Below, one piece after another: positions 17,066-39,727 of a stretch of 64,000 nt of DNA (positions are counted from its first letter, which is position 1; each line of letters starts with the position of its first letter). Source of the DNA: a phage; NCBI GenBank assembly GCA_022897995.1, contig GCA_022897995.1_4763.1. The stretch is one strand, 5' to 3'. The notes below the pieces were generated by a model that saw nothing but the letters and a program-made list of their open reading frames with translations, did no database searches and was not told the DNA's origin. The translations under genes were made by a program, and so were the position numbers.

Positions 17066-20379
<3,314 letters not shown>

Positions 20380-20392
20380 AATAAATTACCTC

Positions 20393-21256
20393 TTAAAATT
20401 CTCTTACAATACGTGGACCCGGTGGAATCGGTGCAACTGGTATTGGAATATCACTAGAATATGATTCTTTGATTGTTCCGTCCCATTCTTCTTGCTCAAC
20501 ATCACGTTTAACAACTTCATGATCCACTGATTCAAAATTACCGCTAGGATTTAATTCACGAGAATTGGCATGAAAATCAAGATAAATCGTTCTAATTTCC
20601 CCCTTAACGTCGGTAGCTGGAGGATAGATAAACCCGATAAATTCAAACATAATGGTCCATTCAAGACGGCGACGAGAAAACTTATCTTCGCCTACCTGTT
20701 CATCTGGGGTAATAGAACTAATTGTGACCTGAATATCTCGATCAATCCATACATCATTACCGTGTAGTTCTTTAATCTTACAGTTAAAATGAGGCTGGAA
20801 GTAAGGAAGAATCTGTTCAATTATCTGAAACATATCATCTTCGTTACGTGTATAAATCCCCAACTCGAAGGTAAACTTATATGGTACAGGGTTATATTGT
20901 GTCACACTCCTGATTCCATCAGCCGTATATTTTGGTACTGTCTTATTTGCAATATTGGTTTTAAAGTTCTGGGCGTATGTCATATCAATCAAAGAAAGAC
21001 ACATGCGCGGTAAAATAGTTTCTACCTTTGCTACGTCTTCCTCACTGGAGATATTGTTATATTTGTCCAGACTCATCATGAATTTTTCTTTCTTTGCGTA
21101 GGTGATAGGAACTTTAATAAAACGCTCACCGTCACTACGCACCCTTTTAATTTGTACGCCGGAGAATAAATTACCCAGCAATACAATATACCGTCTAATT
21201 GACGAATTATAGTGCCAACCGAACATTTGACCCCCTTGTTTATGAGTATTTATCAA
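20393..21256 (-). CDS. 15: tail sheath stabilizer and completion protein gp15
   Basis: 287 aa; ..[40 protein letters not shown].. matches T4 gp15. Confidence 0.85.
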
Positions 21257-21993
21257 AAATCGGCGAAAGGTGAACCCTTGCCATTAATAGGGTCAAACGG
21301 ATCAATAAAATCTTGTCCTTCGCTTTTAAATTGCTTATCTTCTTTGTATTGATCTAAGTTAATGTCTGTTAATCCATCAAGATTAGTGATCGGTGCAAGA
21401 TCCAGATCCGCGAACTCATCAACATTAATTCCCTCATTGCGTTGTAATTCTGGTCGCAATTCCTCGCCGCTATACACGAATTTCTCTGCAATAATTTTAC
21501 GCATGGCATTTTTGCCAGCCTGAAAAAACGGCTGATATGGCTCGACGTAATTGATTTCAAAGAGATCATTACTCATTGGAATATAAATCAAGTCACCTGA
21601 TTTTGGCTCTTGATCATCTACTTGATGCTTGAATAGGTTGGGGTTAACCGTAAAAGTTAGTTCATCATTGGCTTGATAACCGAAACTAGAGAAGAAGTTA
21701 CCAGCGCCTTCATACCCATCAAATGAGTTAATATAAGCCGCAAATTTCCATGCTTTAGTAAATTTGCTTTGAACATCCTCGCCAAAGATCATGTCTGGTT
21801 TGACAAATTCACGAGGGATGTAATATAATTCTACACCTCGCATCTGAATAGCTTCGGCGACCATAACGTCGGCTAACGTCTGAGTATTTGTATATTTGTG
21901 AAAATTCACATAAGGATTAAGAATCTCTGTTTGTCGTGTATTCTCATAATCCTTTTGCGATTCAAGGCGAGCAAAAAGAGTGTTGTTAAACAT
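21253..21993 (-). CDS. 14: neck protein gp14
   Basis: 246 aa; position between 13 and 15. Confidence 0.8.
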
Positions 21994-26831: not shown

Positions 26832-28634
26832 TTAACCTACCCTTAACCAGCGATGAACGGTGCGATATGGAGGAAGAATACCCATCATTGATGGATCAGC
26901 ATTTCCAGAATTAACTTTTACGATATCCTCTCTATATTTCGTAAACGCTGGACCTGCCGCATCAGGATCAACTTGGCAGCCACCAATGATAATTGACCCT
27001 GTATCGTCTTTCACCAAAACACGATCGCTGGATTGTAATTCAGGAATCATATCTTTCTTGATTTGATAGGCAACTTCACCACCAGTACCACCAGCGGTGT
27101 GTGTAGGTTGTCCATGAATATCAAGATCGTTATTGTTTAATGCAAAATTCTGGTCGCTGGCATCGGAAGACCAACCAGCAAGAAATTCTCCTTCCGCATA
27201 CCGAACCCAGATACCAAACCCCATATAGGTCGCTGGGTTAGCTGGGTTATGTGCGTTTTCGTATATCGTGCCGACCGGATGGAAAATATCAAACAGTGAA
27301 TATATATCCATAATTCGACCTGAATACTCTTCTGCTGGACGAGTGTTTTTCTGGCTAGGATTCTGGAAGTCTGTATATTCAATTTGTTTTGTTAAATTAA
27401 CTTCGTCTTCATTATTGAGATAAATCTTGTCTGCTTTTTCTTTAATTCCGCCGACACCATCCCATTCTAATAGAGTTCCGATATCGTTATTAAACCAACG
27501 AATTGTTATAGTATCTCTATTGTCCAACGCTTTAGCTAATTTAATCCCTGTTACAATGCTATTCTCATCAAATACCAGTGAATAATCTTCTCCAGACTGT
27601 ACCCACTGACCGCCAGCAAGTGCGCAACTCTCTTCGGTTTCTCCGTCAGCACCTTCACAGACAAACGAAGGAAGATCAGCATCACCAGCTTTAATCATTT
27701 GAGTACCATTTATTAATAACTCAAATGAATTTGGGTTAATTATATCACGTTTACTAACGCCCAAATCAGCATTGGTAAATTCTTTTTTCTTCGATAAATC
27801 ACCCACCCACACTTCACCAGGAATAGTTTCGAGTGCTGTCATTCCGGTATCATATACTCTAATTGTGTGCGTGATATAACTAGATCGGAATGATGCAATC
27901 CCGTCCATATATGTAATAATTTGAACGGTGTCACCAGCCGAACAAGGAAAACGAAGTTTTATGCTTTTGCCATCAAGTTCAACAAGTGATCCATCCTCAC
28001 CGATTGAACCGTAGTTAGAGTCATTACTAAAAGACTTGCCATAATATAAAAGGTTTCCTCGATAATATACTTCAACATTTCGAGTGTTATATGTGTTAGA
28101 ACCAAATACATTAGGGAAATCTGTTTGCCCTTCTGTGGCAATATAAACTTCCTTAGCTACTGTGCTTAGATCAGACGTGGTGATCGTGTCAACTCGCTTG
28201 TTTTCGATATATTCCCAGCGTCCAGGCGCACAATAAACCAATTCAACATCCATGAAATCTTTATACAATTCTCGGTCGATTGGTGATCCTTTAATTGTAT
28301 CGCCTTGTGCTGGCTTAAGTGTTACGTTATGAGACGCCCAAGAGCGCCAAACATCACGAAGTTTAATTGTCTTGTTATAATCACCAACTCCACCTTTAGG
28401 AAGCTCTACCGACACCGCGTTGTTTGTTGTATTGATAGCCCACGCATCACCAAAATTAGGCTTTAATAATGGATCTGTGTGCGTTTTCCATGCACCGGAT
28501 GCGTGGGGGGTATCGCCATCCCCCAGCTTAGTATAAAGTTCAGAAAAGTTGTCGTTGATCTTTTGACCGCCTTTTCTTAGATAATCACCCGTACCGTCAT
28601 CTACAACGTTACCGATATTAATTAATTGTTTCAT
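26832..28634 (-). CDS. 10: baseplate wedge subunit and tail pin gp10
   Basis: 600 aa; N-terminus GNVVDDGTGDYLRKGGQKINDNF shared with gp9/gp12 N-termini as in T4. Confidence 0.85.
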   Translation of the reverse strand: MKQLINIGNVVDDGTGDYLRKGGQKINDNFSELYTKLGDGDTPHASGAWKTHTDPLLKPNFGDAWAINTTNNAVSVELPKGGVGDYNKTIKLRDVWRSWASHNVTLKPAQGDTIKGSPIDRELYKDFMDVELVYCAPGRWEYIENKRVDTITTSDLSTVAKEVYIATEGQTDFPNVFGSNTYNTRNVEVYYRGNLLYYGKSFSNDSNYGSIGEDGSLVELDGKSIKLRFPCSAGDTVQIITYMDGIASFRSSYITHTIRVYDTGMTALETIPGEVWVGDLSKKKEFTNADLGVSKRDIINPNSFELLINGTQMIKAGDADLPSFVCEGADGETEESCALAGGQWVQSGEDYSLVFDENSIVTGIKLAKALDNRDTITIRWFNNDIGTLLEWDGVGGIKEKADKIYLNNEDEVNLTKQIEYTDFQNPSQKNTRPAEEYSGRIMDIYSLFDIFHPVGTIYENAHNPANPATYMGFGIWVRYAEGEFLAGWSSDASDQNFALNNNDLDIHGQPTHTAGGTGGEVAYQIKKDMIPELQSSDRVLVKDDTGSIIIGGCQVDPDAAGPAFTKYREDIVKVNSGNADPSMMGILPPYRTVHRWLRVG

Positions 28635-29485
28635 GTAGCAACCCCGATTTTAATAGTGTCTGTGGCTTTAACTGCTAAACGAATATTTTCGCCAGTAGCC
28701 TTATACTCTGCATATACTTTATCGCCGGAACCAATGAAATAACGAACCGTGTATAATTCGTCTTCTGTTTTCTGTAAAACCGCATATTCTGTCGCGTAAA
28801 CTTTTCCGGCTCTGGCATCAATCATCAATAGAGTTTCGCTTGAGCGCATTTTTGAACCCGTCGTATTGCTAGCGGTTGTTAGTAGTTTAATTGATACATA
28901 TTCTGTTTTTGCTGCAATAGCAACGTTGGTTGCAACTCCAGTTACATTAACTGTCCTATCTAGTGGTGTGGTTGTGTCGGTAAACATACTTTCGATGCCC
29001 AGCCGCCAGGTAACTCTACTACCTTCGACGGCAGTACACCAGACGGTGACTTTTGAGAAAGGTTGAGTTATTACCGCGTCACCGGAATACCCGCTAATAG
29101 AATCTCCTGCTTGAGTTCTAATGTTTAGTGGTGTTGTTGCCGAAAAGCTACCGTTACTATTTATGAACACAACACCCTCACCAACTTTAGCTTTAGGAAG
29201 GATTGCTATTAATGCGCCTTGAGTTGTGTCAATATCATGCAGACTGCCAATCTCTACCGCCGTTCCTGCATAATTTTGTCGTGGGTGTTTCTGATAGTAT
29301 CCAGTGGCATGAATAACCATTCGACCAGCACCATGATCAATCTCTTTTAGACGTTGGTCCGCAAATGCGTCATAGATCGAATCAAAGTTATCATTAATTT
29401 TAACGCCACCGTCATATAAGATATCACCAGTCGATGGATTGCCGACTGTGCCAGTGTCTATTCTTTTCTTTGGAACTTGTGCCAT
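28631..29485 (-). CDS. 9: baseplate wedge tail fiber connector gp9
   Basis: 284 aa; ..KRIDTGTVGNPSTGDILYDGGVKINDNF.. matches T4 gp9. Confidence 0.85.
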   Translation of the reverse strand: MAQVPKKRIDTGTVGNPSTGDILYDGGVKINDNFDSIYDAFADQRLKEIDHGAGRMVIHATGYYQKHPRQNYAGTAVEIGSLHDIDTTQGALIAILPKAKVGEGVVFINSNGSFSATTPLNIRTQAGDSISGYSGDAVITQPFSKVTVWCTAVEGSRVTWRLGIESMFTDTTTPLDRTVNVTGVATNVAIAAKTEYVSIKLLTTASNTTGSKMRSSETLLMIDARAGKVYATEYAVLQKTEDELYTVRYFIGSGDKVYAEYKATGENIRLAVKATDTIKIGVAT

Positions 29486-29512
29486 TGTTTAATTCCTCAT
29501 GTTATGATGTAT

Positions 29513-29520
29513 TATTTATA
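29513..29520 (-). promoter_or_regulatory. T4-type late promoter (TATAAATA) for gene 9
   Basis: Plus-strand TATTTATA 29513-29520, 28 nt upstream of ATG 29485. Confidence 0.55.
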
Positions 29521-29530
29521 AAATACATAC

Positions 29531-29558
29531 AAAAAAGCCGCCCACGAGGACGGCTTAT
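29531..29558 (-). terminator. intrinsic terminator ending the methyltransferase cassette (minus strand)
   Basis: AAGCCGTCC-TCGT-GGGCGGCTT hairpin plus T6 on the minus strand, directly after stop 29561. Confidence 0.65.
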
Positions 29559-29560
29559 AA

Positions 29561-30400
29561 TTAAATGTCAAACAAGTCTGAGAGCGTCCCAGACGCTGTT
29601 TCCTGTTTCGGTAAGGTAATCTCCTTACTTTCTTCTATTTGTTCGTTAGGACGCGATTTAGGCGCTTCTACGGCTTCTTTCTCGTAATACCGAACCTCAA
29701 CCACTTCTGTTAAAACGTTGGTATTATGCCATTCATCGCGATAGACTGATGTATCGATCCCACATCCGGCATAAGTCACCAAACCAGTTTGTTTGCTCCA
29801 TTTTAGATATTTATTAGACTTCACTGATTCATCATAATAAGGTCTGCCGGAATAGGCAAAACCAGCGGAACTAGAAGGAACAATAAAGTAACCTACATCG
29901 GCAAACTTCTGGCCTAACGTCATAACCTTAAATTCAAACTCACCGCCAGTATATTCAAATACATCCTTTGTGTTGGTAGTATTGATTTTCCCGAAAGGTG
30001 GATTGCTAATTACAACATCGAATTTCTCGTTTGACTCAAATTCGAATACATCGCTGGTGATCCATTCTGCCTCCGGTAATAGTCGCTTGCCAATCCGCGC
30101 AAATTCTGGATTGAGTTCGACGCATACGATCTTTTCTGGCTTACAACGATGCAACATACAAAAAGATAAACGACCGATCCCAGCACAAAGGTCCAATACT
30201 TTTCCGGTGCAGTGTGCGTCAATGGTAAAATCCCAGGCAAGCCATTCTGGGGTAAAGAATGCACCGGAACCACCTAGCCCATCGCCATGATAGTTATTAT
30301 AGCAAAATTCTTTTTCTTCAAATGTCAATGGACGATCTGAATTAATCAACTCCATTGCTCGGTCGTGTAATTTTTGTTCTTGTTTAGAAAGTCGTGCCAT
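29561..30400 (-). CDS. putative gamma-class N6-adenine methyltransferase (TaqI-like motif order)
   Basis: 279 aa; GAFFTP (motif X), VLDLCAGIGRL (motif I, SAM binding), VISNPPFG (motif IV); start overlaps upstream stop (TAATG). Confidence 0.55.
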   Translation of the reverse strand: MARLSKQEQKLHDRAMELINSDRPLTFEEKEFCYNNYHGDGLGGSGAFFTPEWLAWDFTIDAHCTGKVLDLCAGIGRLSFCMLHRCKPEKIVCVELNPEFARIGKRLLPEAEWITSDVFEFESNEKFDVVISNPPFGKINTTNTKDVFEYTGGEFEFKVMTLGQKFADVGYFIVPSSSAGFAYSGRPYYDESVKSNKYLKWSKQTGLVTYAGCGIDTSVYRDEWHNTNVLTEVVEVRYYEKEAVEAPKSRPNEQIEESKEITLPKQETASGTLSDLFDI

Positions 30401-30732
30401 TATTTAACCTTTGCTGTGACGGTAACGCTATGCCCCAGATAAGTATGAGACATAAAGAATACATAGTCCTTAAATTGCTGATTCTTACGAATCCATCGCT
30501 TCAATTTTCGAATGCAAGTTATACGATGGTCATAATTAGAATAACTAAATTCAATACCCTGTTTCATCATCTCGTGCATTTCTTCGTATGTGTGCCATTG
30601 GTTATCATGTTTACAAAACCAATGAGTACCATAGAGTTTAGGATCTTGTGCACGTAGACCATAGTAATGCTTTTGCATTGGGAACTTAGCTTTATTCATT
30701 GTGTAATGCAGTTTAATATTTACGCGTGCCAT
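30400..30732 (-). CDS. hypothetical protein (110 aa), cassette gene 2
   Basis: GGAG RBS then ATG 30732; translationally coupled to the methyltransferase gene. Confidence 0.5.
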   Translation of the reverse strand: MARVNIKLHYTMNKAKFPMQKHYYGLRAQDPKLYGTHWFCKHDNQWHTYEEMHEMMKQGIEFSYSNYDHRITCIRKLKRWIRKNQQFKDYVFFMSHTYLGHSVTVTAKVK

Positions 30733-30977
30733 TTTCTATCACTCCACATACCGAAAGTTGGATTATATACAAAATGTATAGCTTCATCAATAGTCTTGAA
30801 TCGTTTAGTTACGTTAGCGCAATTAATACCCTCCCACAATTCATCGGTGTAATCGGCTAGTGATGAATGAGTATGATCGATAATCTCTCCGATCTTTTCA
30901 CCGTTCGCGATCACATCCCAACCGCAAGGGGATACCTGAATTGCTTCACAATTATCTGTAAATTTACGATGTGCCAT
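30720..30977 (-). CDS. hypothetical protein (85 aa), cassette gene 1
   Basis: GGAGG RBS 8 nt upstream of ATG 30977; sigma70-type promoter immediately upstream. Confidence 0.5.
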   Translation of the reverse strand: MAHRKFTDNCEAIQVSPCGWDVIANGEKIGEIIDHTHSSLADYTDELWEGINCANVTKRFKTIDEAIHFVYNPTFGMWSDRKWHA

Positions 30978-31006
30978 AATTTATCCTCCGTTGTTTAGAT
31001 GTGAGC

Positions 31007-31034
31007 ATTATACCTTACCAGACAAGATTGTCAA
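31007..31034 (-). promoter_or_regulatory. sigma70-type (early) promoter on the minus strand driving the methyltransferase cassette
   Basis: Minus strand reads TTGACA (plus 31029-31034), 16-bp spacer, TATAAT (plus 31007-31012). Confidence 0.6.
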
Positions 31035-31046
31035 CACCCAAAATGT

Positions 31047-31076
31047 AAAAAGCCAACTCTCTCGAATTGGCTTTTA
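31047..31076 (-). terminator. terminator-like hairpin downstream of gene 8 (minus strand)
   Basis: AAAAGCCAA-TTCGAGAGAG-TTGGCTTTT inverted repeat 12 nt after gp8 stop. Confidence 0.5.
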
Positions 31077-31087
31077 AAATCATACAC

Positions 31088-32083
31088 TTAGAACTCAAAC
31101 AATACAGAAACAAGTTCTGTTTGATCTAATGACCGAACGATAGGTTGTCGGTTTTCCATGTAGATCATTTCTCCTGAGTGTGGCTCTAAGTCTTGCGGAC
31201 GGTACTTATCTTTAACCGCTTTAACGTCTGGATCGCTAGGGCGTGCTTTCTTTTCCAATGGGTTAAGGATAATGCTTAACTGACGGAAACCAGTATTACC
31301 CACTAACGCGGTAGTTGGGAATTGCGCAGAGTCCATATAAGCCTGAAAACGCAAAGTTACTACTTTCAGCCGATAAAGCAGATTATAGTCATTATACCAG
31401 GTGATCACATTGTCATAGCCCCAACGCGCCGGATCTTGTCTCAATTCATCCGGGAATGGAACAACAATATGTTCATTGGTGCAACGGTTGATCGCCGCAT
31501 CAGGCGGAATTGTGTACAAATATTCCCAACGATAACCGTCACCCATATCAATAGAATCGCCTTTCCCTACTGGTGGCGCTATTGATTCATGAGTAGGGGT
31601 CCATTTTCCACCCAATTTCAAACACTCTACTTTTGCGTCAATGCTTGAAATAGAACAATAACCGCGATCAGGAACATCTGTCACTCGATATACCATCCAA
31701 CCACTACCAACATCTGTACGGTTATATGGTGCTGAGTTTACGACAACAATGTCATTGATAAAGAACGTGCGCGGGTTATCCTGTCCGGTATCACCCCAAT
31801 CTTTACGAGGGATAACCGCATCAAGAAGTGATTTGTTAATCTTAACCGCCCCCATCATATGGGTCCACATGTCAACAACACCAGCCGTTGAATCGGTCGG
31901 ATAAGGTGGGGCAAAGCCCACCTCTTTTTCGTTTTCTGACCACGGCTCCGAACGTCCAAACGTTCCATAAATTGTAATTTGATTTGCTCCATCGCCTACA
32001 GAATTATAGAAATTCAGAAGTTTCTCTGTCCTGAATTTGCTAGTAATGATTGAGCGATAGATCACACTATTTTCATTAGCCAT
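31088..32083 (-). CDS. 8: baseplate wedge subunit gp8
   Basis: 331 aa; ..SVIYRSIITSKFRTEKLLNFYNS..HSGEMIYMENR.. matches T4 gp8. Confidence 0.9.
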   Translation of the reverse strand: MANENSVIYRSIITSKFRTEKLLNFYNSVGDGANQITIYGTFGRSEPWSENEKEVGFAPPYPTDSTAGVVDMWTHMMGAVKINKSLLDAVIPRKDWGDTGQDNPRTFFINDIVVVNSAPYNRTDVGSGWMVYRVTDVPDRGYCSISSIDAKVECLKLGGKWTPTHESIAPPVGKGDSIDMGDGYRWEYLYTIPPDAAINRCTNEHIVVPFPDELRQDPARWGYDNVITWYNDYNLLYRLKVVTLRFQAYMDSAQFPTTALVGNTGFRQLSIILNPLEKKARPSDPDVKAVKDKYRPQDLEPHSGEMIYMENRQPIVRSLDQTELVSVLFEF

Positions 32084-35000
32084 TAATTTTCCTCTGTGTC
32101 GGATTCTTCGGATCTCGTGGATTTCCTATATTATCCTTCAACCGTTTATCCACGAGTTCACGGAACATAGAGAACGTTACCGCTGATTGGTCAAACAATG
32201 GACTCATATCAAACCGACGTTCGCTTGCTTTCAGACCGTGGAATAGTTCGCTATTTTCCTGATCGTAATCAGGCGGTACAGGGAACTCTTCGCCAATTGT
32301 CGGTGACGTTAAGTATAATGGTTTCCCTGTTAGCGGGTCAATCTTAATATTTCCATCAACATCAAGGTCAGCAACACGATCAGGATACACTCTAGGTAAT
32401 CCGCTGTCAAACTTATAGTTTTTAAGAGTTCTGATTATAGTTTCTACGTGTCTCATACTTAACCCGCTATTAATAAACATTGTAAGAAGAGTAACACCTA
32501 TGAAACCAAAACCTACAGGATGAACAAATCTCATAACGTCATTTGCATATCTGGAAGTAGGTAAAGCACTCTTAATCTTCATGGTGTATTGGCTGCGTGA
32601 GCGGTTGATATAGTCGATTGAACTACTTAACAACTCTTTACCACGTACACCAACAAGGATCATCCCCTCGAATGCAGTTTTCTCTGACTTGATCAATTGA
32701 CCTTCTTCGAACCTTCCGATCAGGTTATGAATGGTTATTCGCCAGCGTAGGCGACCTCCTTCATATTCCCTTTCAAGATACGTCACGTTAGCCCGTCCGG
32801 TTGGAGTATAGATCGTGCGTCCTACGATATCCTCATCAATATTCGTTGAACTAACTACAATATCATACTCTAGTCCGGCTTGTGATTCAACCTCAATTTC
32901 TACATCTTCGTTATACAGTAACTTAAACAGGAACTTATAAGAAGCCTCCACACCCTTAGTGGAATAAAAATCTGATTTACGGGATTCAAAGAATCTTATT
33001 ACCGCATCTCGCTTGTTTTTGTCTGCATAGATATTTCGTTTGTTCATCTCTGACCAAAGATACTCATATGCATCTTGTTCTCGTGGATATTTGTTTTTAA
33101 TCAGATTTTTTAGTTTGTTATAGTATGTTCCTGAACCATCACTTAAGAATTGCAGATAATATTCAGAAAATTTTCTGAAATTTTCATTCTCCAGCAAGAA
33201 ACTGTCTGGTGTCATCTTATTCAATAAAGGCCGTAAATCTGGATCTTGTTCTCTGTCATAGTGAACTGGAACCCAGGGCACTTCACGAACCTGATTCTGT
33301 AATTCTGCAACAAGTGCTACATTTGTAGGCTTCCAATATACACCGACCTGATCGCGAACACGATAATTAAATTGATAAAATCCTATGATCTCCCCTGTGT
33401 TTTTATGGAACATCACACCAGATGCATATTGTTTGAATCCTTCAAATTTAACGTTGTTCAGATAACAGGTTACGGTCCCTTTATCATATACTTCACGGTT
33501 AATTCTGTTTTTATCAAGAATGCCGGAAGTATCAACTTCCTGAGTATAGACAACTTCTGGATAAACAACCAACGGGCGATTATCGTTTGTGATCCATACA
33601 CGAACACCGTTTCGACGCATCCATGTATAATCAGCCTCATTATAATACGCTTGCGATCCTAATTCCCAAATACGCAAATCATCATAACTTGCTCTGAAAG
33701 TAGTTTGATGTATTTTCTTATCAGTTAGATAAGTTGGCTCCTGAGAATATTTTACAGCTTCGCTTAATTCATATTTCGCGGCAGTTTCTGGATCAGGTAA
33801 AATGCTTTCGAAATGATGATTATAATGGCTTATGAATGCCTCATCACCATTGGTTGACATATTACTGAACCCATGCTGAATATATTCCCTTTCCTGCGGA
33901 GTGTTGCCAAATACTCGCTGAAAAGATAATCCATCGCTTTCAATCAAGTATACCCCCGCATCTTCTGACGGGACAACGTTTCCAGGTTTAGTCGGATCTT
34001 GATAACGCTGTTTAACTTCACCCGTAACAAATACAAGTAATTTTCCGTCAACAACATCCATTTTCTGAATAACAGCTTTGTCATTTCCTGTTACTCGGAT
34101 AATGTCAGGGTCAAATATCTTTTCCCCAAATGTAGGCGAACCCTGAACGGTATCAACCGGAGTATTCTTAAGGCGAATCCGGCGAATAACATCCTTAGCA
34201 CCAACCCACAAATAGTCATCACTACACGCCATAGCTTCGGCGTATTTTGTAGTGTCTCCTGTCAGTCTAGCAAGTACACCAAATACTTCAACATCAAACC
34301 CTAAATCGTTTTCGTCACCAACTTTTGCGAATGTGATAGTATCATCACTAAAGCGAACATCGTCCGCGCTCCATCGGGTATCGCTGGCTTGTCGTCCGTA
34401 AAAGATACGGTCATATCCTAAAACGTAAGTAGTAGTCTTAGACTGATAAACGCATGTACGGGAAACCGGATTGCCTACACGGTCGTTAAACGCTTTATAT
34501 GCTTTCCATGATTGACCTTTATCGTTAGACACCTTCACAATTGGCTGGAATCGCTCAAAAAGATATAGCACACCGTTCATTTCCGCTAACATGGTGCGGT
34601 TTATGTCAGTACAGACTTTTTCTATATGATCTTGGATCTCGTGAAAGTTTTCATCAACAATAATTTTGTTAGAAATATTTGTGATGTTTGCATATTCAGG
34701 ACTGAAAACAAAATCTTCCTGCATCAATGATGCTTGAATTAAATCAGTATTGAATTTAATATAATCACGATTATCATATGTAAACTTTTGCTTAACAAAT
34801 TCATTCGCCAGATTAAATTCTCGCATCGTTGAGAAGTTATAAGCATTGGTCTTGAATGTCTGAAACTCTTCGGTCTCAATCCATTTACTTTGTTCAAACC
34901 CTTCTGCGGCTACTGCTACACGAAATTTGTAATAATATTCTGGAAAAAGGTTTTTGTCCTCAAACCAGTTTTGGTCGGCAGTATATCCCAGGTTTACCCA

Positions 35001-35162
35001 GCTTAACTCATCGACGGGGATGATCTCCCCGTCTCGTGTTCTGGTTTCGGCTAACTCCACAAAATAAAAGAAGTTTTCGCCTACGTCATCCCATGTGATA
35101 TACGCCTGATTAGCAGACAATTTTTCTATTGTCAAGCTAGTTACACTAGGCGCTTTAATCAT
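32076..35162 (-). CDS. 7: baseplate wedge initiator gp7
   Basis: 1028 aa (T4 gp7 ~1032 aa); synteny 6-7-8. Confidence 0.85.
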   Translation of the reverse strand: MIKAPSVTSLTIEKLSANQAYITWDDVGENFFYFVELAETRTRDGEIIPVDELSWVNLGYTADQNWFEDKNLFPEYYYKFRVAVAAEGFEQSKWIETEEFQTFKTNAYNFSTMREFNLANEFVKQKFTYDNRDYIKFNTDLIQASLMQEDFVFSPEYANITNISNKIIVDENFHEIQDHIEKVCTDINRTMLAEMNGVLYLFERFQPIVKVSNDKGQSWKAYKAFNDRVGNPVSRTCVYQSKTTTYVLGYDRIFYGRQASDTRWSADDVRFSDDTITFAKVGDENDLGFDVEVFGVLARLTGDTTKYAEAMACSDDYLWVGAKDVIRRIRLKNTPVDTVQGSPTFGEKIFDPDIIRVTGNDKAVIQKMDVVDGKLLVFVTGEVKQRYQDPTKPGNVVPSEDAGVYLIESDGLSFQRVFGNTPQEREYIQHGFSNMSTNGDEAFISHYNHHFESILPDPETAAKYELSEAVKYSQEPTYLTDKKIHQTTFRASYDDLRIWELGSQAYYNEADYTWMRRNGVRVWITNDNRPLVVYPEVVYTQEVDTSGILDKNRINREVYDKGTVTCYLNNVKFEGFKQYASGVMFHKNTGEIIGFYQFNYRVRDQVGVYWKPTNVALVAELQNQVREVPWVPVHYDREQDPDLRPLLNKMTPDSFLLENENFRKFSEYYLQFLSDGSGTYYNKLKNLIKNKYPREQDAYEYLWSEMNKRNIYADKNKRDAVIRFFESRKSDFYSTKGVEASYKFLFKLLYNEDVEIEVESQAGLEYDIVVSSTNIDEDIVGRTIYTPTGRANVTYLEREYEGGRLRWRITIHNLIGRFEEGQLIKSEKTAFEGMILVGVRGKELLSSSIDYINRSRSQYTMKIKSALPTSRYANDVMRFVHPVGFGFIGVTLLTMFINSGLSMRHVETIIRTLKNYKFDSGLPRVYPDRVADLDVDGNIKIDPLTGKPLYLTSPTIGEEFPVPPDYDQENSELFHGLKASERRFDMSPLFDQSAVTFSMFRELVDKRLKDNIGNPRDPKNPTQRKING

Positions 35163-37927: not shown

Positions 37928-39727
37928 TCACCCAAGATCAATACGGCTACCATCAATTTTAACTGTACCCGATGCGATATCTTTAACGCTTGCGCCACAA
38001 TTACGGGACCAGTCACCATTAACCTGATCTGATTTAGTGCCATTGACGGTCATATTAAAATTACCCTCAACGGTTAAATCATAGTTACCTTTAATTGTCT
38101 CGGTAGTGTTACCCTCGATCATTAATTCAGCATTACCCTTGACGTTAGCCGTCAAATTAGCGTCAAGCTGTGCGATAACATCACCGACAACATGCATATT
38201 TGCAGTACCCTCAACGGTCTGATTAACATTACCACGAACAAATTCAGTAACGTTTCCATCAACGGTTTGCATTACATTACCCATATAATAAACTTGCGCG
38301 TCACCTTCAACAACAACTTGCAGATTTCCTTTAACGTTGACTTTGCGGCCTTGCTTAACGATCAAATAGTCATCACCTTCAATCTTTTCTACCCTCGTTC
38401 CGTCCGGTCTGGTTTCTTCAAATGTACCAGAAGGATGTTTGCGGTGATAACGTTCGTGAGAAGGAGTATCATCAATCTCGATAATATGACCGCTCTCTGA
38501 CTCGTACACATGGTTATAAGGATACCTTGCAGAATACGAACTCTTAGGCTCTTTAAACATGATTCGTGTGTCTTGTGGGGTAAATGGTGCTTCTGGGTCT
38601 TCTTCTGCTCTCTGCGTCTTATAGGCAGCAATACGGGCATTTCTCAAACGTGCTCGCGGATCATCAGAAATTGATTCCTCTTTCTTTGGAGCAATTACGC
38701 CATATGATTCTAAGTTACCAGTTAAAATAATTTTAGATACACGGCTTGAACGTCCTGGAGTTTGGTTAGCCCATACCGATTGACGTAATCCATCATAGGC
38801 TTGTTTCCATTCTTCCGCTAACATCGCAGCAAGACTATTCTTAAATTTACCCAATCCACCAACACCCATTTGAAACGCCATATTTTCTAATGCCATACGA
38901 CGAGAAGCATTACACTTATTATAGACAGGTGCAATTCGTGGATGTTTGCGCATATCACGACGAGTCTTTTCTATATCGTCAGCAAATACTTTACTAACTT
39001 CTTCGGCTGTAAGTCTTCCGTTTGTAACTTCACGCCCTACCAGCTTAGAAAGTTCATTATTGATAATACCCAGATCACTGGTTTTCTTATAAATGATCAA
39101 ATGCCCGATGCCTATTGTCGGATATCCTTCTGAATCAAGATACCATTTCTCGCGATATCCCTCATCGCCCCGCAGCATTTTTTCTATTGTGTATTCTGGG
39201 TTATCGTCAACCGGAATTTGGTCTAATGGCTCGTCGTCTGGATTTACTGCAAATCCAGTGTTTTCATCTCGAATATAGACACTATCAGGTTTTGTTGTTT
39301 GTCCGGTTTCTGGGTTAATACCGCCACGAGCAAGAATATTAACATCATTACCAATATAACGAGGATATGCACCAGAAGGGTCGCAAAAACCTTCTGTAGT
39401 GAGTGGTTTCTCTGTATATTGTCCGGCAATAGTACCCAGAATAACGCAGTTTAAATAACGTTCATCTAAAGCCAAACCAAATACCATTGAACCTTCAACA
39501 ATACCAGTAGGACTTTGACCTATACCGGAGATCGCCGCGCTTGTAATATCTTGTACTGGCGTAATCCATAATAGATCTTCGGTTGGAAGACCTTGAATGT
39601 CACCGTGTGCGGATAGCGAAGGATGTATACCATGAATCCTAACCTGAACACGCCCCAGCATTAACGGGTCTTCCCTGTTTTCTACAATTCCGGTAAACCA
39701 TTTAACGGAGTTATTAAACATTAGCAT
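37928..39727 (-). CDS. 5: baseplate hub subunit and tail lysozyme gp5 (cell-puncturing device)
   Basis: 599 aa; lysozyme-domain motif ..SEGYPTIGIGHLI..; C-terminal beta-helix repeats (VNVKGNLQVVVEGDAQV..). Confidence 0.9.
   Translation of the reverse strand: MLMFNNSVKWFTGIVENREDPLMLGRVQVRIHGIHPSLSAHGDIQGLPTEDLLWITPVQDITSAAISGIGQSPTGIVEGSMVFGLALDERYLNCVILGTIAGQYTEKPLTTEGFCDPSGAYPRYIGNDVNILARGGINPETGQTTKPDSVYIRDENTGFAVNPDDEPLDQIPVDDNPEYTIEKMLRGDEGYREKWYLDSEGYPTIGIGHLIIYKKTSDLGIINNELSKLVGREVTNGRLTAEEVSKVFADDIEKTRRDMRKHPRIAPVYNKCNASRRMALENMAFQMGVGGLGKFKNSLAAMLAEEWKQAYDGLRQSVWANQTPGRSSRVSKIILTGNLESYGVIAPKKEESISDDPRARLRNARIAAYKTQRAEEDPEAPFTPQDTRIMFKEPKSSYSARYPYNHVYESESGHIIEIDDTPSHERYHRKHPSGTFEETRPDGTRVEKIEGDDYLIVKQGRKVNVKGNLQVVVEGDAQVYYMGNVMQTVDGNVTEFVRGNVNQTVEGTANMHVVGDVIAQLDANLTANVKGNAELMIEGNTTETIKGNYDLTVEGNFNMTVNGTKSDQVNGDWSRNCGASVKDIASGTVKIDGSRIDLG

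Follow-up and report, generated by a model that had tools for sequence, protein, structure and literature searches.

The 64,000-nucleotide stretch of phage DNA analysed here (contig GCA_022897995.1_4763.1 of assembly GCA_022897995.1; "the window" below means this whole stretch) carries a cassette of about 1.5 kb between the baseplate genes 8 and 9, at positions 29,531 to 31,076. The cassette encodes three proteins on the minus strand: ORF85 (85 aa, 30720-30977), ORF110 (110 aa, 30400-30732) and a methyltransferase of 279 aa (29561-30400). They correspond to ORF140, ORF142 and ORF143 of phage Phi1, all annotated as hypothetical. ORF110 shares 13 nt with ORF85 and 1 nt with the start of the methyltransferase gene. 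An earlier note on this DNA had described the three genes as translationally coupled, and their stop and start codons do overlap. The window was assigned to Krischvirus, the RB49/Phi1 group, as every one of the 59 phage records matched by 3.5 kb around the cassette (92-98% identity) is a Krischvirus (RB49, Phi1, JSE, KFS-EC and others); KFS-EC is the top match at 97.7%. The methyltransferase ends in a peptide resembling the C-terminus of the phage DNA polymerase, gp43, and we lean slightly towards the view that it is a clamp-tethered, replication-coupled phage DNA adenine methyltransferase, a view drawn from sequence comparisons.

The methyltransferase and its C-terminal peptide

By its motifs and modelled fold, the 279-aa protein is classed as an NPPF N6-adenine amino-methyltransferase of a distinct family, phrog_3820. 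The motifs GAFFTP (motif X, aa 46-51), CAGIG (motif I, aa 72-76) and NPPFG (motif IV, aa 133-137) are invariant in a 23-sequence alignment of the family, as is the acidic residue E95. The gamma-class motif order X, I, IV with (N/D)PP(Y/F), as the earlier note had read it, is therefore present in all 23 sequences. These motifs lie in a catalytic core (aa 1-238, 29687-30400), which is confidently predicted in the AlphaFold2 model. The core is followed by a disordered, low-complexity linker (aa 239-271, 29588-29686; predicted local distance difference test score, pLDDT, 48-56) that varies in length and sequence among homologues; residues 240-279 as a whole are modelled as disordered, with a pLDDT of ~50.

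The fold is similar to that of solved gamma-class N6-adenine DNA methyltransferases. In structure comparisons the alignments with the DNA methyltransferases 2f8l, HsdM and MmeI take in the N-terminal helices and run over 207-215 residues. Matches to RNA-type methyltransferases span the generic catalytic core only, ~80 residues by sequence and 168-172 by structure. Profile searches gave a less clean picture. The best Pfam score was to MTS (38.7), Eco57I narrowly passed (27.2 against a cut-off of 25.3) and N6_Mtase failed (17.2 against 20.4). The best NCBIfam match, PrmC (TIGR03534), reached 37.4 bits against a cut-off of 199.1 and so failed that equivalog model, and the top PADLOC match was mad2, the methyltransferase of the MADS defence system (E 2e-17). 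Placement in the DNA adenine methyltransferase class, which the earlier note had proposed, thus holds for motifs and fold and does not hold as a clean profile assignment, with MTS best, Eco57I marginal, N6_Mtase failing and no target-recognition domain. Fold and profile searches alone do not decide between DNA and RNA as the substrate. The best argument for DNA is the C-terminal peptide, which the earlier note had missed.

The protein ends ...ETASGTLSDLFDI, with GTLSDLFDI as the last residues before the stop codon. The terminal octapeptide TLSDLFDI (29564-29587, minus strand) is a predicted epitope for binding the sliding clamp gp45, by its likeness to the end of gp43. In Phi1, gp43 ends ...EKVASLTDLFDI, and the same ASLTDLFDI ending is found in KFS-EC and in 011D4, the most divergent of the Krischvirus matches. 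In sequence, the methyltransferase peptide is nearly the same as the one at the polymerase C-terminus of this phage. We scored the last eight residues of ~1,560 stop-terminated open reading frame segments, drawn from ~155 of the 164 kb of one Krischvirus genome, against the gp43 octapeptide; gp43 itself scored 39 and the methyltransferase 32, and the highest score of any other segment was 19. The possibility that the tail arose by recent copying of DNA from the 3′ end of the gp43 gene was rejected, since only ~12 nt are identical, the leucine codons differ and there is no homology upstream.

The C-termini of T4 gp43, gp33 and gp55, which are hydrophobic and acidic, are interchangeable gp45 ligands carried on divergent unstructured linkers (PMC2988020), and the complex of the RB69 gp43 peptide with gp45 has been solved (1B8H; PMC2988020, PMC3012046). 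The methyltransferase shares the architecture of these T4 and RB69 clamp tails, a terminal hydrophobic/acidic peptide on a divergent unstructured linker. It differs in that the peptide is carried by a methyltransferase, which is not known as a client of gp45, and binding here is a prediction from sequence.

Two other Krischvirus proteins carry comparable peptides. The DNA ligase (Phi1 gp30, 19134-20630), which ends ...TVKEVFDV, ranks third among the matches to the gp43 clamp peptide. T4 RNase H contacts gp45 via its N-terminus (PMC3012046), and the N-terminus of Phi1 RNase H (rnh, 38764-39708) reads TLNDFFDD. On these likenesses, the ligase and RNase H may be further gp45 clients.

Tails across the family and alternative readings

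The methyltransferase family comprises about 1,100 representative clusters. Phage members come from many T4-like genera, from jumbo phages and from small temperate phages; plasmid members come from Pseudomonas megaplasmids and from alpha-proteobacterial and Streptomyces plasmids; others lie in chromosomal islands adjoining integrases or transposases. This distribution marks the family as one of mobile elements. RB43, Matisse and numerous other T4-like phages have homologues of 45-50% identity between the genes for the gp41 helicase and the gp61 primase, which in RB43 and Matisse places them in the replication gene cluster. The homologue of Dickeya phage JA29 (401-1570) carries a second domain at its C-terminus, which brings it to 389 aa; several representatives, 366-395 aa long, seem to be built alike.

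The tails of this family are not random in their endings. We took 147 representatives (50%-identity clusters) whose core is complete; tails of at least 10 aa occur in 102 of them, and these long tails were compared with 1,000 shuffles. The pattern [LMF]F occurs within the last 12 residues of 53 of the 102 (shuffled mean 10.1, maximum 20). The bacterial beta-clamp motif is QL(S/D)LF (PMC9690074), and a strict Q-hydrophobic-x-L-[FL] form of it is present in 22 of the 102 long tails, compared with a shuffled mean of 0.2 and a maximum of 3. Phenylalanine is the final residue in 19 tails, and common endings are QLSLFDAA, QLTLF, QLGLF, QLALF and QLDLFGGA. A Pseudomonas megaplasmid homologue, for example, ends AQLSLFDAA, and that of a 52-kb Rhizobium phage ends GQLSLFGDAA. 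Rhizobium phage RHph_N28_2 has a QLSLF-tailed homologue with a PAPS-reductase-like gene on one side and a second DNA methyltransferase gene on the other, a neighbourhood that looks like a DNA-modification cluster. Among T4-like phages, the RB43 homologue ends QNLFTFTIE (its gp43 ends SLNTLFGDDW) and the Matisse homologue ends SDLFTFTIE (its gp43 ends SLNDLFGDW).

As far as these sequences indicate, the type of tail follows the clamp that replicates the element, with beta-clamp motifs on plasmids and temperate phages and gp43-type endings in T4-like phages. This is hard to explain unless the enzyme acts on DNA at or behind the replication fork. It raises the broader idea of a widespread mobile-element methyltransferase family tethered to the sliding clamp, in which the core stays constant and the C-terminal peptide is swapped to suit each clamp; we hold this tentatively, at somewhat less than even chances.

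Several observations weigh against clamp-tethered DNA methylation. First, the enzyme lacks a discrete target-recognition domain: the whole protein is one ~238-aa domain plus a disordered tail, and N6_Mtase falls below threshold. It is set apart from the gamma-class enzymes M.TaqI, HsdM, the Eco57I family and Listeria lmo1582 (2f8l) by having no recognition domain at its C-terminus or on a partner and a core of just ~238 aa. Nor was a specificity-subunit partner found, as neighbouring open reading frames are not conserved alongside the methyltransferase homologues. Second, almost no tail is present in 45 of the 147 representatives, about half of the long tails are without a motif, the homologues of the T4-like phages CC2 and phiM7 have no clamp motif, and the likeness of the RB43 and Matisse tails to gp43 is restricted to the xLF core. 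Third, the phage already encodes Dam. T4 Dam is, like the cassette enzyme, a phage-encoded orphan adenine methyltransferase, expressed before packaging, but it belongs to the alpha class, and the C-terminus of Krischvirus dam (phi1p063) has no clamp motif. Finally, RB49 DNA has been handled as unmodified, and DraI, HpaII and NheI cut it (PMC4041780); this speaks against dense, non-specific adenine methylation, so that any methylation would be sparse or motif-specific.

Some of these points suit another explanation, in which the protein is a stand-alone DNA adenine (or N4-cytosine) methyltransferase, an ordinary orphan anti-restriction methylase whose tail is no functional clamp tether. The gamma-class motifs and fold fit this, PHROG and RefSeq annotate the protein as a "DNA methyltransferase", and the tail-less homologues (chromosomal Citrobacter copies, CC2, phiM7) are presumably functional. 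We nevertheless regard it as unlikely. An idle tail would not account for a gp43-like terminal peptide with no other comparably close match in the proteome, for a motif that, although the linkers diverge, is strongly enriched at the very C-terminal end, or for a motif type that switches with the resident clamp system.

The enzyme might instead methylate RNA, as an RNA N6-adenine methyltransferase of the METTL5/PH1948 or RsmC kind acting early on host rRNA or tRNA or on phage RNA, with a C-terminal peptide that is coincidental or serves another interaction. By sequence, no small single-domain NPPF enzymes are closer than the METTL5/PH1948 18S rRNA m6A enzymes, which are also among the top fold matches. 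They align with the cassette methyltransferase over the catalytic core only and, unlike it, are cellular rather than mobile-element genes and have no clamp motif. RNA-type matches generally span the generic core alone, whereas 2f8l, HsdM and MmeI align over the longer stretch given above; the best PADLOC match is mad2; and the family is restricted to mobile elements. A polymerase-like clamp peptide, together with beta-clamp motifs across the family, would make no sense for an RNA substrate. This reading is quite improbable in our judgement.

It is very unlikely that the protein works mainly by way of the clamp and not by methylation, for example by competing with gp43, gp33 or gp55 for gp45 and so tuning replication or the late switch, or that it is a replisome-targeting protein (glutamine/lysine) methyltransferase: the tail is indeed the ligand type of the polymerase and the late-transcription factors, the best NCBIfam match is PrmC and the gene is located within the late operon, but the PrmC score lies far below its cut-off (37 bits against 199), the S-adenosylmethionine-binding and NPPF residues do not vary in a family that is otherwise highly diverse, a sign that its members have kept their catalysis and share a substrate, and the plasmid homologues have beta-clamp motifs though no T4-type late transcription occurs there.

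The cassette at the gp8-gp9 junction

The genes flanking the cassette are core structural genes, all on the minus strand. Upstream lies gp8, a baseplate wedge subunit (31088-32083; Pfam Phage-Gp8, E 1e-143), preceded by gp7 (32076-35162). Downstream lies gp9, the baseplate wedge tail-fibre connector (28631-29485; Pfam T4_gp9_10_N, E 1e-40), followed by gp10 (26832-28634). The identity of gp8 is 99-100% across the 59 Krischvirus records.

The module is inserted relative to T4, as the earlier note had it: gp8 and gp9 abut in T4, with a spacing of 63 bp and no cassette between them, and in Tulanevirus, Slopekvirus and Zedzedvirus phages, where the spacing is 9-61 bp. The further suggestion of horizontal acquisition did not hold up in the sense of a recent event. 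When the junction was compared, all three genes were found at the same site throughout Krischvirus, in 59 of 59 records that have the window's gp8, an outcome that the earlier note itself had listed as counting against its reading, and the base composition of the cassette is not distinctive and gives no signal of recent transfer. The cassette is therefore read as a genus-wide, genus-defining and ancestral insertion, neither strain-specific nor recent. A search for flanking direct repeats or insertion scars at the cassette found just a recurring start-codon context, TAA..ATGGCAC. In the form TAAA..ATGGCAC(A/G), encoding Met-Ala-(Gln/Arg/His), it makes up a direct-repeat family at the starts of gp9 (29478-29491), the methyltransferase (30393-30406), ORF110 (30725-30738) and ORF85 (30970-30983).

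The regulatory signals fit a self-contained, terminator-bounded module, and this part of the earlier description was borne out element by element, all on the minus strand. Directly after the gp8 stop codon, a stem-loop with a 12-bp stem, AAAAGCCAATTCGAGAGAGTTGGCTTTT (31048-31075), was found by terminator scan and as an inverted repeat; its position bears an ARNOLD terminator annotation in phage G37-3. The -35 box of a predicted early sigma-70 promoter, TTGACA-16-TATAAT (31007-31034; 12 of 12 positions match), begins 13 nt downstream of this hairpin. A Shine-Dalgarno sequence, GGAGG (30985-30989), read directly from the sequence, lies 7 nt 5′ of the ORF85 ATG and is unchanged in an alignment of the window, Phi1 and G37-3. 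The cassette ends in a predicted intrinsic terminator, AAGCCGTCCTCGTGGGCGGCTT followed by TTTTTT (29535-29556; 9-bp stem with 6 GC pairs), also annotated by ARNOLD in G37-3 (-15.4 kcal). Just beyond it, a sequence scan placed the T4-type late promoter of gene 9, TATAAATA (29513-29520), which is invariant in Phi1 and G37-3. The cassette promoter and both hairpins are likewise kept in these two phages, the Phi1 promoter reading TTTACA with a 17-nt spacer. No Rfam match to a structured RNA was found in the cassette region.

Perfect TTGACA/TATAAT sites are rare by chance in the window (0.07 expected in 64 kb), and five were found, the cassette promoter being the sole one on the minus strand. Another of them, TTGACA-18-TATAAT at 21800-21829 (plus strand), is antisense to gene 14 (21253-21993, minus strand) and lies within it. 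T4 early and middle transcripts have a single polarity (PMC2988020); the predicted early unit of the cassette, unlike these, runs in the "late" direction.

Promoters of this kind have a precedent, also missed by the earlier note, in the promoter early stem-loop elements (PeSLs) first defined in RB49 and Phi1. In these, a consensus sigma-70 promoter is coupled to a stem-loop terminator, and both activities were shown experimentally; five subclasses are distinguished by stem position, one having the stem upstream of the -35 box (PMC2839356). Recombination between PeSLs, giving mini-circles, also belongs to the published description. PeSL cassettes, known from the cassette's own phage group, resemble it in having a promoter and stem-loop followed by a Shine-Dalgarno sequence and small open reading frames, which in PeSLs are non-essential (Arbiol et al. 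2010, PMC2839356; Comeau et al. 2014, PMC4122927). The gp8-gp9 element has the near-consensus promoter (TTGACA-N17-TATAAT in PeSLs, here with a 16-nt spacer) and the adjacent stable stem-loop, read as its terminator/attenuator half, in the upstream-of-the--35 subclass. ORFans are replaced in PeSLs, and here ORF110 is allelically exchanged among strains. There are also differences. The stem is without the polyG/polyC tracts of a typical PeSL; the cassette lies in a conserved virion module between the core genes 8 and 9 and not in a hyperplastic region with variable ORFans; and, unlike variable PeSLs, it is fixed in all 59 genomes, with allelic replacement at ORF110 only. In sequence, the element at 31007-31075 fits a PeSL type that is atypical in location, invariance and G/C tracts. 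The gp8-gp9 locus is absent from the text of both PeSL papers (PMC2839356, PMC4122927). As a genus-wide, PeSL-type early unit the cassette is ordinary, since dozens of genomes carry an annotation of its methylase gene and elements of this type have been in the literature since 2010.

The two small genes appear to be a module of their own. ORF85 (phrog_16603, unknown function) has no match in Pfam, NCBIfam or PADLOC, and searches by family, fold and context gave no functional clue for either ORF85 or ORF110. Homologues of ORF85 are confined to Krischvirus and Vequintavirus. In rV5-like Vequintavirus phages, homologues of ORF85 and ORF110 (57-70% identity) are adjacent and overlapping, with no methyltransferase following, and in RB43 and Matisse the methyltransferases are preceded by unrelated small open reading frames. 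The cassette is thus best described as a composite and not as the single functional module of three genes that had been envisaged: to judge from these arrangements, the ORF85-ORF110 pair is a two-gene module with a mobility of its own, which merely shares a transcript with the methyltransferase. Kinship of the pair with the small open reading frames upstream of the RB43 methyltransferase was considered and rejected for lack of homology. ORF110 itself has two Krischvirus alleles, at ~95% and ~68-72% identity, while the flanking ORF85 and methyltransferase genes stay above 90%. The divergent allele is carried by RB49, Whisky, UPWr_E1, MIZ4, LF73P4 and the Makalu phages. This pattern reads as a localised replacement within the cassette.

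One further observation concerns gp17, the large terminase (17069-19885, minus strand), which is 938 aa long in the window as against 607 aa in Phi1. An in-frame insertion of 331 aa (about 18401-19393), not in Phi1, splits the Walker A motif (SRQLGK/TTAV) and carries a LAGLIDADG_3 domain; from these features it is almost certainly an intein.

Proposed replication-coupled methylation and its possible benefit

The following sequence of events would fit a clamp-tethered methyltransferase. Host sigma-70 RNA polymerase would fire the cassette promoter, whose elements are seen in the sequence, probably soon after infection. The upstream hairpin would insulate the cassette from late transcripts of gp6-8, and the downstream terminator would insulate gp9, which has its own late promoter. 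The main product of the cassette would be an orphan N6-adenine methyltransferase, made up of the ~238-aa core, the disordered linker and the TLSDLFDI end. This end is expected to dock into the hydrophobic pocket of gp45 as the T4/RB69 gp43 peptide does. Riding on clamps loaded on replicating phage DNA, the enzyme could then methylate adenines in the nascent duplex, with the clamp supplying the DNA affinity to an enzyme that has no separate target-recognition domain. What the phage might gain is speculative; one candidate is that new phage DNA is rapidly protected from, or marked against, restriction by the host or other defences that sense DNA. Such protection would come in a phage lineage whose cytosines are, in most reports, unmodified.

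A link between the cassette methyltransferase and the cytosine modification of the Krischvirus phage SAP was considered unlikely, since it is exocyclic amines, and not C5, that enzymes of the NPPF kind methylate. A 2026 paper found the cytosines of SAP fully modified and those of TB34, which is 99.96% identical, not modified at all, and identified no pathway genes (PMC13390438).

The closest precedent in concept is eukaryotic. DNMT1 is a DNA methyltransferase brought to newly replicated DNA through a clamp-binding peptide, the PIP-box, which binds the clamp PCNA (PMC9690074). In other respects the two differ, as DNMT1 is an unrelated, large multidomain C5-cytosine enzyme with an N-terminal internal motif and maintains methylation at hemimethylated CpG. 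Our full-text literature searches found no prokaryotic or phage methyltransferase with a sliding-clamp-binding motif, and the gene passes unremarked in the Slopekvirus papers. As far as we found, the clamp-tethered variant is undescribed.

There are several ways in which this would matter if it is true. First, the methyltransferase would add a new class of client to the gp45 and beta-clamp "tool-belt". Second, it would explain how a methyltransferase without a recognition domain finds DNA, as a minimal enzyme could mark nascent DNA processively. Third, it would suggest that phages and plasmids methylate their DNA at the fork, ahead of restriction enzymes. It would also offer a testable handle on DNA modification in Krischvirus, the biology of which is currently puzzling (PMC13390438). 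Finally, prokaryotic mobile elements would have a replication-coupled DNA methylation analogous to that of DNMT1 and PCNA.

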